A stretch of DNA of 18,322 nt from UHGV virus genome UHGV-1290461; one strand, given 5' to 3'. Below are positions 17,008 to 17,972 of this stretch, one piece after another. The first letter of the stretch is position 1; every line of letters begins with the position of its first letter. The notes under the pieces were generated by a model, which had not been told where the DNA came from, did no database searches, and worked only from the letters and a program-made list of their open reading frames with translations. The translations under genes and the position numbers were made by a program. The stretch comes from a virus.

Positions 17008-17118
17008 ATGACCTCCATAGTAACCATGAAACAATAATACGATATGTACTTTTAGAATGCAAACAAAAAATACATCTTGTGCATGGATGGTTTTAGTACA
17101 GAGCGTAATAATAAGGGT
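17008..17118. promoter_or_regulatory. OR region: divergent pR (toward cro) and pRM (toward cI) with candidate operators
   Basis: 111-bp AT-rich interval between divergent cro and cI. Candidate pR on the minus strand: TTGCAT, 17 bp, TATTAT. Repeated GTACTTTTAG / TTTTAGTAC motifs at about 17045-17056 and 17089-17100. Confidence 0.5.
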
Positions 17119-17778
17119 ATGAAAATGAAATGGTATGAACTGGCTAGATCCAGAATGAAAGAGCTCGGCATAACTCAAGAGAAGTTAGCTGAAGAGCTTG
17201 GTATGACGCAGGGTGGAATTGGTCACTGGTTGCGCGGATCTCGTCATCCATCTCTTGACGAGATTGGTGTGGTGTTTAAATACCTTGGTATTGATAACGT
17301 CTCATTCAACCACGACGGTACATTTTCACCTGTTGGCGAATGCTCATCTGCCCCCGTTAAAAAACAATATGAGTACCCTGTTTTTTCTCATGTTCAGGCC
17401 GGGATGTTCTCGCCTGAGCTTAGAACCTTTACCAAAGGTGATGCGGAGAGATGGGTCAGCACAACCAAAAAAGCCAGTGATTGTGCGTTCTGGCTTGAAG
17501 TTGAAGGTAATTCCATGACCGCGCCAACAGGATCCAAGCCAAGCTTTCCTGACGGGATGTTAATTCTCGTTGACCCTGAGCAGGCTGTTGAGCCAGGTGA
17601 TTTCTGCATAGCCAGACTTGGTGGTGACGAGTTTACCTTCAAGAAACTGATCAGGGATAGCGGTCAGGTGTTCCTACAGCCACTAAACCCGCAATATCCA
17701 ATGATTCCATGCAATGATAGCTGTTCCGTAGTAGGGAAAGTTATCGCCAGCCAGTGGCCTGAAGAGACATTTAGTTAA
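17119..17778 (+). CDS. cI: CI repressor (helix-turn-helix DNA-binding domain plus LexA/S24-type autocleaving C-terminal domain)
   Basis: C-terminal ~140 aa ([38 protein letters not shown]...[11 protein letters not shown]) is nearly identical to lambda CI as recalled; the N-terminal domain is different. Start placed at the ATG at 17119 (AAGGG Shine-Dalgarno); the ORF-track start is 17077. Confidence 0.9.
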
Positions 17779-17808
17779 CAGCCTCACAACTCTAAAACAC
17801 ACAACAAT

Positions 17809-17840
17809 AACCCGACCTTAGCGTCGGGTTTTCTTTTTCC
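17809..17840 (+). terminator. Rho-independent terminator downstream of cI
   Basis: aaCCCGAC-cttagc-GTCGGGtt hairpin followed by TTTTCTTTTTCC on the plus strand, 30 nt after the cI stop. Confidence 0.65.
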
Positions 17841-17903
17841 AAAATATAAACCCATTAAATACAAAGCGTTATAAAAAACTAATTATATTTAGAACGTTTT
17901 GTA

Positions 17904-17932
17904 TTGACTCGATAAAGTACAAACCGTACTAT
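17904..17932 (+). promoter_or_regulatory. Putative pL promoter (-35 TTGACT, 17-bp spacer, -10 TACTAT) with an overlapping palindromic candidate operator
   Basis: TTGACT at 17904-17909 and TACTAT at 17927-17932. The spacer contains AAGTAC-aaacc-GTACT. About 40 nt upstream of nutL. Confidence 0.6.
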
Positions 17933-17972
17933 TTAGCCATCAGCAGGACGCACTAACCACCATTGAAGGTGA

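Follow-up and report, generated by a model that had tools for sequence, protein, structure and literature searches.

Six related imperfect palindromes of 15-17 bp, three in the control region OR and three in OL of the virus UHGV-1290461, are very probably the shared operators of its CI and Cro proteins, acting in a lambda-like switch between lysis and lysogeny. All six follow the pattern A-R-TAC-N5-GT-x-x-T, and the grounds for reading them as operators are the sites themselves, their non-random placement, their conservation, their covariation with the recognition helices of the two proteins and their overlap with promoters; what we infer in the switch model is actual binding, the order of affinities, cooperativity, activation and looping between OL and OR. 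The immunity region is of an already known type, that of VT2-Sakai, Stx1 phages and Nil2, for which six operators have been predicted and annotated. The original prediction for this DNA, which proposed AGTAC-N5-GTACT-type operators of a non-lambda specificity, did not recognise that type, although its six operators stand annotated in public records.

The window, meaning the whole stretch of 18,322 nucleotides that was analysed, ends in a lambdoid early region whose orientation is opposite to that of the lambda map (Table 1), and the remainder consists of P22-like head and early DNA, with phages 720R6, CUS-3 and Sf101 as the closest relatives. The immunity module is thus housed here in a P22-like, non-Stx E. 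coli phage, where it is joined to the lambda CI C-terminal domain, nutL and N. From 17935 to 18322, 3' of pL, the sequence turns lambda-like, with a mosaic joint lying between OL and nutL; the boxB and the N-terminal portion of N are presumably those of lambda. The Stx1-converting phage of GenBank record AP005153, which has the same immunity, differs in this respect, as its N is annotated as HK97-like. At the other end of the early region, the O gene contains, at 15911-16000, a set of four iterons (TGTCTCTAACTTCGAGACA and variants), each about 19 bp long and spaced 24, 24 and 20 bp, which constitute a lambda-type replication origin; however, where lambda has P beside O, the partner gene here is DnaC/IstB-like. 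A TTGC-N6-TTGC element (TTGCTTTTAGTTGC) at 16650-16663 on the plus strand, within the 5' end of cII, has the arrangement that would be expected of the -35 region of a CII-activated pRE, as in lambda. An Rfam scan of positions 14000-18322 returned zero known RNA families, and an RNA explanation of the control regions therefore does not apply.

Table 1. Features of the early region of UHGV-1290461, in window coordinates, and the extra operator-like site of related phages (last line)
Feature	Position	Strand	Description
DnaC/IstB-like gene	15529-14666
O-type replication gene	16359-15514		contains iterons
cII	16675-16394		CII family by Pfam
cro	16792-17007	-	71-aa all-helical HTH_3 protein; Pfam HTH_3 E = 1.4e-12
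pR (predicted)	17034-17063	-	consensus scan: -35 TTGCAT/TTTGCA 17057-63, 17-nt spacer, -10 TATTAT 17034-39
OR1 (candidate)	17035-17051		17-mer AAGTACATATCGTATTA (minus strand); 15-bp core 17036-50
OR2 (candidate)	17068-17084		AAATACATCTTGTGCAT; 15-bp span 17069-83
pRM (putative)	17084-17112	+	weak -35 TGGATG 17084-89; -10-like TAATAAT 17106-12
OR3 (candidate)	17094-17110		TAGTACAGAGCGTAATA
cI	17119-17778	+	219 aa; N-terminal HTH_3 domain and C-terminal Peptidase_S24 domain (Pfam)
Hairpin terminator (terminator-like site)	17809-17830		directly 3' of cI
OL3 (candidate)	17857-17873		AAATACAAAGCGTTATA; 15-bp span 17858-72
OL2 (candidate)	17890-17906		CAATACAAAACGTTCTA (minus strand); 15-bp span 17891-905
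pL (predicted)	17904-17932	+	consensus scan: TTGACT 17904-09, 17-nt spacer, TACTAT 17927-32
OL1 (candidate)	17915-17931		AAGTACAAACCGTACTA
nutL boxB hairpin	17989-18003	+	GCCCTGAAGAAGGGC; sequence and hairpin
N, start	18177		downstream of boxB; N begins MDAQTRRRERRAEKQAQWKAANPLLVGVSAKPVNRP
Extra operator-like site	L001 ~3861-3875		+2033 from cI start

The divergent cI and cro genes are separated by an intergenic region that holds three of the palindromes, centred at 17043, 17076 and 17102, and a second cluster, centred at 17865, 17898 and 17923, lies at the leftward early promoter upstream of nutL and N. Centres are 33 and 25-26 bp apart within the clusters, as against about 23-24 bp in lambda, and 822 bp separate OR2 from OL2. 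OL1 is the sole perfect AGTAC-N5-GTACT of the six. OR1 combines AATAC (17036-40) with GTACT (17046-50), with 5 bp between them, and OR3 combines AGTAC (17095-99) with GTAAT (17105-09), while OR2, centred 43 bp upstream of the cI ATG, pairs a good left half with a degenerate right one (GTGCA). The kinship of OL1, OL2 and OL3 was recovered independently by a generic repeat finder, as direct and inverted copies. A scan of OR and OL for operators of the lambda, 434 (ACAA-N6-TTGT) and P22 types found none. The half-site core, (A/G)TAC...GTA(C), is accompanied by no lambda-type half-site in either region, as anticipated in the claim of a non-lambda specificity. The region stands outside imm-lambda, having neither operators of the TATCACCGC type nor the lambda CI N-terminal domain and sharing with lambda CI the C-terminal domain alone, and it likewise stands outside 434 and P22 immunity, neither operator type being present in OR or OL. 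The architecture is nonetheless that of lambda, in that there are three plus three 17-bp imperfect palindromes, with O1 on the lytic promoters, O3 on pRM and O2 about 42-43 bp upstream of the pRM start; the half-sites differ, being TATCAC in lambda and ARTAC here.

The operators overlap the -35 or -10 elements of pR and pL, both located by consensus scan, and of pRM, which was deduced from the sequence and the annotation of AP005153. OR1 spans the -10 and spacer of pR, whose position matches the 'putative major rightward promoter' of AP005153. OL1 spans the spacer and -10 of pL, so that the claimed overlap of the palindrome at 17915-17930 with this promoter holds, and OL2 overlaps the pL -35 by 2 bp. 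No pRM was called in the strict promoter consensus scan; OR3 overlaps its proposed -10, a TAATAAT that stops 6-7 nt short of the cI ATG, and the arrangement (GTAATAAT, or GTATAAT-N6-ATG) is conserved in relatives. The distance of this -10 from the ATG, its overlap with OR3 and the position of the OR2 centre 43 bp upstream together suggest that the cI mRNA is leaderless and made from an activator-dependent pRM, as in lambda.

In the proposed switch, CI and Cro would each bind as a dimer, with the recognition helix of the helix-turn-helix placed on the TAC half-site. CI at OR1, and at OL1 and OL2, would occlude pR and pL. OR2, with its one good and one poor half, would probably be occupied through cooperation with CI at OR1, mediated by the lambda-type C-terminal domain. 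Since OR2 is centred 43 bp upstream of the cI ATG, CI bound there probably activates the weak pRM, giving the leaderless cI message. OR3 overlaps the pRM -10 and is for this reason the likely site both of negative autoregulation by CI and of the shut-off of cI by Cro. Induction of the prophage would follow from RecA-stimulated self-cleavage of CI at the conserved Ala-Gly site.

The two proteins have the properties that such a model calls for. CI pairs an N-terminal helix-turn-helix domain with a LexA-like, self-cleaving S24 C-terminal domain, the latter identical to that of lambda CI at 133 of 136 positions, including the cleavage region VQAG|MF and the S24 catalytic motifs, so that RecA-dependent induction, dimerisation and pairwise cooperativity would be expected as in lambda. 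The N-terminal domain is weakly similar to lambda repressor over the helix-turn-helix (1lli, E = 0.0034), and HMMER aligns its recognition segment on helix 3 of lambda repressor (GQSGVGAL) with the leading Gln kept. Cro, whose translation includes TQGAIGHWESGRRFPD, is so annotated in the records of Nil2 and of the Stx1 phage. Near-identity of the two recognition helices had been claimed and is confirmed (TQGGIGHW in CI, TQGAIGHW in Cro), both proteins being HTH_3 members with 35% identity over 62 residues (E = 3e-11). Cro is in this sense an HTH_3 paralogue of the CI N-terminal domain, which lambda Cro is not. The arrangement resembles that of 434 and P22, where the CI N-terminal domain and Cro are likewise homologous all-helical helix-turn-helix proteins with near-identical recognition helices that compete for common operators; the operator sequences are different, however, and the C-terminal domain here is that of lambda. 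The nearest relatives of Cro with solved structures include P22 C2, and the similarity to P22 C2 and to 434 repressor is weak and lies in the helix-turn-helix. The top solved-structure match of Cro is PDB chain 28tn_A, a 'lambda repressor-like protein' (E = 2.4e-16, residues 1-69), which provides a close template for its structure. The cro leader of the window (GGAGGTCA) has an A at position 17010, in or adjoining the cro Shine-Dalgarno sequence. The base is private to the window, since the remaining 28 distinct OR sequences, drawn from 82 related loci, all have C there (GGAGGGCA).

Comparison with distant relatives was made on divergent loci gathered by tblastn and by a scan of bacterial genomes, for which a 4-sequence N-terminal alignment was effective and a 9-sequence alignment too diverse; a query of a protein word index with the 83 residues of the N-terminal domain gave only 12 near-identical fragments and was of no help. 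OR carries three sites, with centres near -76, -43 and -17 from the cI ATG, in 22 loci that represent at least 15 genera and whose CI N-terminal domains are 43-96% identical to the one here. TAC-N5-GTA occurs within 130 bp upstream in 1 of 44 unrelated HTH_3 loci. In all 22 the middle site combines a well-matched left half with a degenerate right one; its position is -42 to -44 in 21 loci, the exception being Pseudomonas psageB2, with -49 and with a displacement of about 5 bp in each of the three centres. Moreover, the helices of CI and Cro vary jointly, and they vary with the half-site DNA: Q-type helices accompany A-x-TAC, K/R-type helices TATAC and P-type helices TGTAC, and in three loci where both proteins have changed from H-W/Y to R-Y, TAC-N5-G is lost and palindromes resembling TACC-N5-GGTA are present instead. 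This covariation, although indirect, is the strongest evidence that helix 3 of CI and Cro reads the half-sites. It may be expressed as a code, in which Q, K/R or P at residue 2 of helix 3 would pair with A, T or T(G) at the outermost half-site base, and the change from H-W/Y to R-Y may switch TAC to ACC. Salmonella phages L/ST64T, epsilon34 and g341c and related prophages of Klebsiella, Proteus, Erwinia, Vibrio and Pseudomonas, with CI N-terminal domains 50-56% identical, share the TAC-N5-GTA core and the three-site OR geometry, whereas the flanks of TAC (TATAC, ATTAC, TGTAC) change with helix residue 2 (Q, K, P). On account of these differences, at least some of these phages and prophages are probably heteroimmune.

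The middle site is also the point on which the best-surviving alternative turns. The true operators might be OR1, OR3, OL1 and perhaps OL2, with OR2 and OL3 non-functional and with none of the cooperativity and activation of the lambda OR1-OR2 kind. A switch of this sort has been reported for the 933W repressor, the right half of OR2 is poor (GTGCA), and the O1-O2 spacing of 33 bp is itself variable, from 32 to 35 bp. Yet the left half of OR2 and its position near -43 are kept in 22 of 22 related loci, its half-site columns never vary, the half-sites of OL3 are conserved too, and the C-terminal domain, which in lambda CI mediates cooperativity, is 98% identical to that of lambda. A switch of four operators or fewer is for these reasons improbable, and six operators shared by CI and Cro remain the preferred reading.

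Among near relatives, taken as 80 viral contigs coding for a CI N-terminal domain 99% identical, the half-sites are the part of the control regions that does not change. In OR (29 distinct sequences), none of the 30 half-site columns varies as compared with 31 of the 83 others (P = 1e-5), and in OL (33 sequences) 1 of 30 varies as compared with 43 of 100 (P = 1.2e-5); the variant sequences are related, so these column-wise Fisher tests overstate independence. OR3 and the half-sites of OR1 are invariant in all 29 OR variants, as are the half-site columns of OR2, and the substitutions among variants are located in the N5 centres, in the spacers and flanks and in a poly-A tract. Beyond OR and OL, the motif is nearly absent across about 400 kb of near-relative loci. 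The poly-A tract, between the pR -35 and OR2 (17064-17069), has a run length of 5 to 8 among natural variants, so that the OR1-OR2 centre spacing ranges from 32 to 35 bp, a variability that is somewhat awkward if cooperativity needs strict helical phasing.

These variants also bear on how the half-sites are to be paired. All of the strings originally quoted are present in the sequence, namely AAGTAC-aaacc-GTACT at 17915-17930, GTACTTTTAG at 17046-17055 and TTTTAGTAC at 17091-17099. If they are taken literally, OR would be one long-range pair of half-sites (GTACTTTTAG and TTTTAGTAC) and OL one palindrome, making two operators in total, and TTTTAG does adjoin both GTAC elements of OR. However, each of these elements has a partner of its own 5 bp away, at the spacing seen in OL1; natural variants and the Stx phages depart from TTTTAG in these flanks, with the partners constant; and both the N5 spacing and the three-site pattern are kept across genera. 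The literal pairing is therefore highly improbable. The two elements, said to be about 46 bp apart, are 45 bp apart and are halves of OR1 and OR3, and their supposed common TTTTAG extension is not a conserved feature. The original inventory had thus noticed three of the six operators, OL1 and elements of OR1 and OR3, and missed OR2, OL2 and OL3, and the check that it proposed, for enrichment of the motif in homologous immunity regions, has now been run with a positive outcome, both in the three-site OR layout of the 22 loci and in the invariance of the half-sites among variants.

Enrichment within the window depends on how the motif is put. GTACT alone is unremarkable, with 22 copies in 18,322 nt, and over the whole window neither bare TAC-N5-GTA (3 observed, 1.6 expected) nor the originally proposed motif with up to 2 mismatches (5 observed, 3.8 expected) is significantly enriched, which made positional, local-shuffle and comparative tests necessary. 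ARTAC-N5-GTNNT gives 8 strand-matches where 0.74 are expected (0 of 200 shuffles), 7 of them within OR or OL; all three copies of TAC-N5-GTA in the 18.3 kb fall inside OR or OL (binomial P = 1.5e-6); and this motif ranks first among 4,160 gapped palindromes scanned for enrichment in OR and OL together. That the palindromes are chance by-products of AT-rich promoter DNA with no protein-binding role, as the AT-richness of OR and OL and the insignificant whole-window counts could be taken to mean, is the least probable reading of all and effectively refuted already, since local dinucleotide shuffles of these AT-rich regions yield 0.11 sites where 6 are observed (0 of 5,000), the half-sites are invariant and the adjoining AT-rich bases variable, and the motif shifts jointly with the recognition helix.

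Assignment to the VT2-Sakai type rests on both DNA and protein. The cro-OR-cI DNA is 92.8% identical to that of Stx1-converting phage AP005153, Stx2 II, Nil2, 2851 and the PA-series of Sakai-type Stx2a phages, and 97.7-99.5% identical to that of phages Dewey, Louie, 683R2, 720R6 and phi458. The CI N-terminal domain is 95.8% identical to those of the VT2-Sakai-type phages, Cro differs at one position in the sequences compared, and the recognition helices are identical. Six 17-bp 'putative operator' features in AP005153 coincide with the six sites here (for instance, 43515-31 with OR1 and 41286-302 with OL3), with the same six half-site sets in the same order and with the same spacing and promoter overlap. 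Differences between the VT2-Sakai type and the window lie in the central N5 bases and the spacers, and in the right half of OL3, which is GTTAT here and GTTGT there. In the Stx phages, furthermore, extra ORFs intervene and OL is found about 2.1 kb past the cI start, whereas here it follows cI directly.

The same six 17-mers are listed in Table S5 of Yin et al. 2015 (PMC4587872) as the 'same as operator sequences in E. coli O157:H7 Sakai', with Fattah et al. 2000 as the source cited there for the six predicted operators. Judged by the AP005153 coordinates, the labels of that table appear to be swapped relative to genome position, its 'OR1-3' being the pL-side sites and its 'OL1-3' the sites between cro and cI. 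Sedhom and Solomon (2022, 2023) used the six sites as VT2-Sa operators with lambda CI as the sole protein tested, which bound weakly in EMSA (apparent KD of about 4-6 micromolar). No footprint, EMSA or co-crystal with the cognate CI or Cro was found in the literature, of which Fattah 2000 and Miyamoto 1999, known through citations, may contain one. The epsilon34 repressor, whose N-terminal domain is about 50% identical, had an equivalent consensus, WTACRAWWTGTAT, predicted for it in the genome paper of that phage. In epsilon34 itself (1501-1521 of the locus L084), a clear-plaque mutant, the repressor start has a TGA where g341c has a conserved Trp codon (MKMN*YD as compared with MKMNWYD), which accounts for the later CDS start in GenBank; the genome paper ascribes the clear phenotype to other changes. 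The Stx1 phage and Nil2 have, about 100 bp upstream of OL3, a further operator-like site, AATACAATTGGTTAT, perhaps a relic or a fourth site on the OL side.

The same AATACAATTGGTTAT is kept beside lambda's OL in two further loci, the 5.3-kb viral contig IMGVR_UViG_3300018471_000084 (L048) and L162, an E. coli MS 85-1 prophage used for comparison with it. L048 combines the cI and OR described here, with TAC-N5-GTA sites, with lambda OL1-3 and pL downstream, at about 4640-4740. Its OL-side junction is present in 48 complete E. coli genomes, and in the one examined it is accompanied by a lambda-type cI, cro and OR. The contig was accordingly rejected as proof that this CI uses lambda operators, and it is probably either a chimera made in assembly or the product of recombination within the near-identical coding sequence of the C-terminal domain. 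The shared domain would be a crossover point, perhaps a recombination hot spot, able to uncouple OR from OL, as in L048. Because the CI C-terminal domain is 98% that of lambda, mixed dimers or oligomers with lambda CI are possible in double lysogens, and these, if they form, would provide a mechanism for the VT2-Sa/lambda cross-immunity that PMC10742460 attributes to Fattah et al.

The window represents the same immunity module moved into a non-Stx, P22-like phage. Since the Sakai-type Stx2a and Stx1 prophages of E. coli O157:H7 are induced under the control of this immunity type, the operators are relevant to the release of toxin. Conservation across genera and the covariation of helix and half-site provide solid comparative support for a long-standing operator prediction, and the accepted picture of lambdoid switches is unchanged by these sites. 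The broader proposition, in which the tripartite TAC-N5-GTA operator is a common design of a large repressor/Cro family in many Gammaproteobacteria prophages, helix 3 carries a readable code and CI can mix with lambda CI, is put forward tentatively and, taken as a whole, falls somewhat short of being probable. If true, the code relating helix and half-site could predict immunity groups from sequence.
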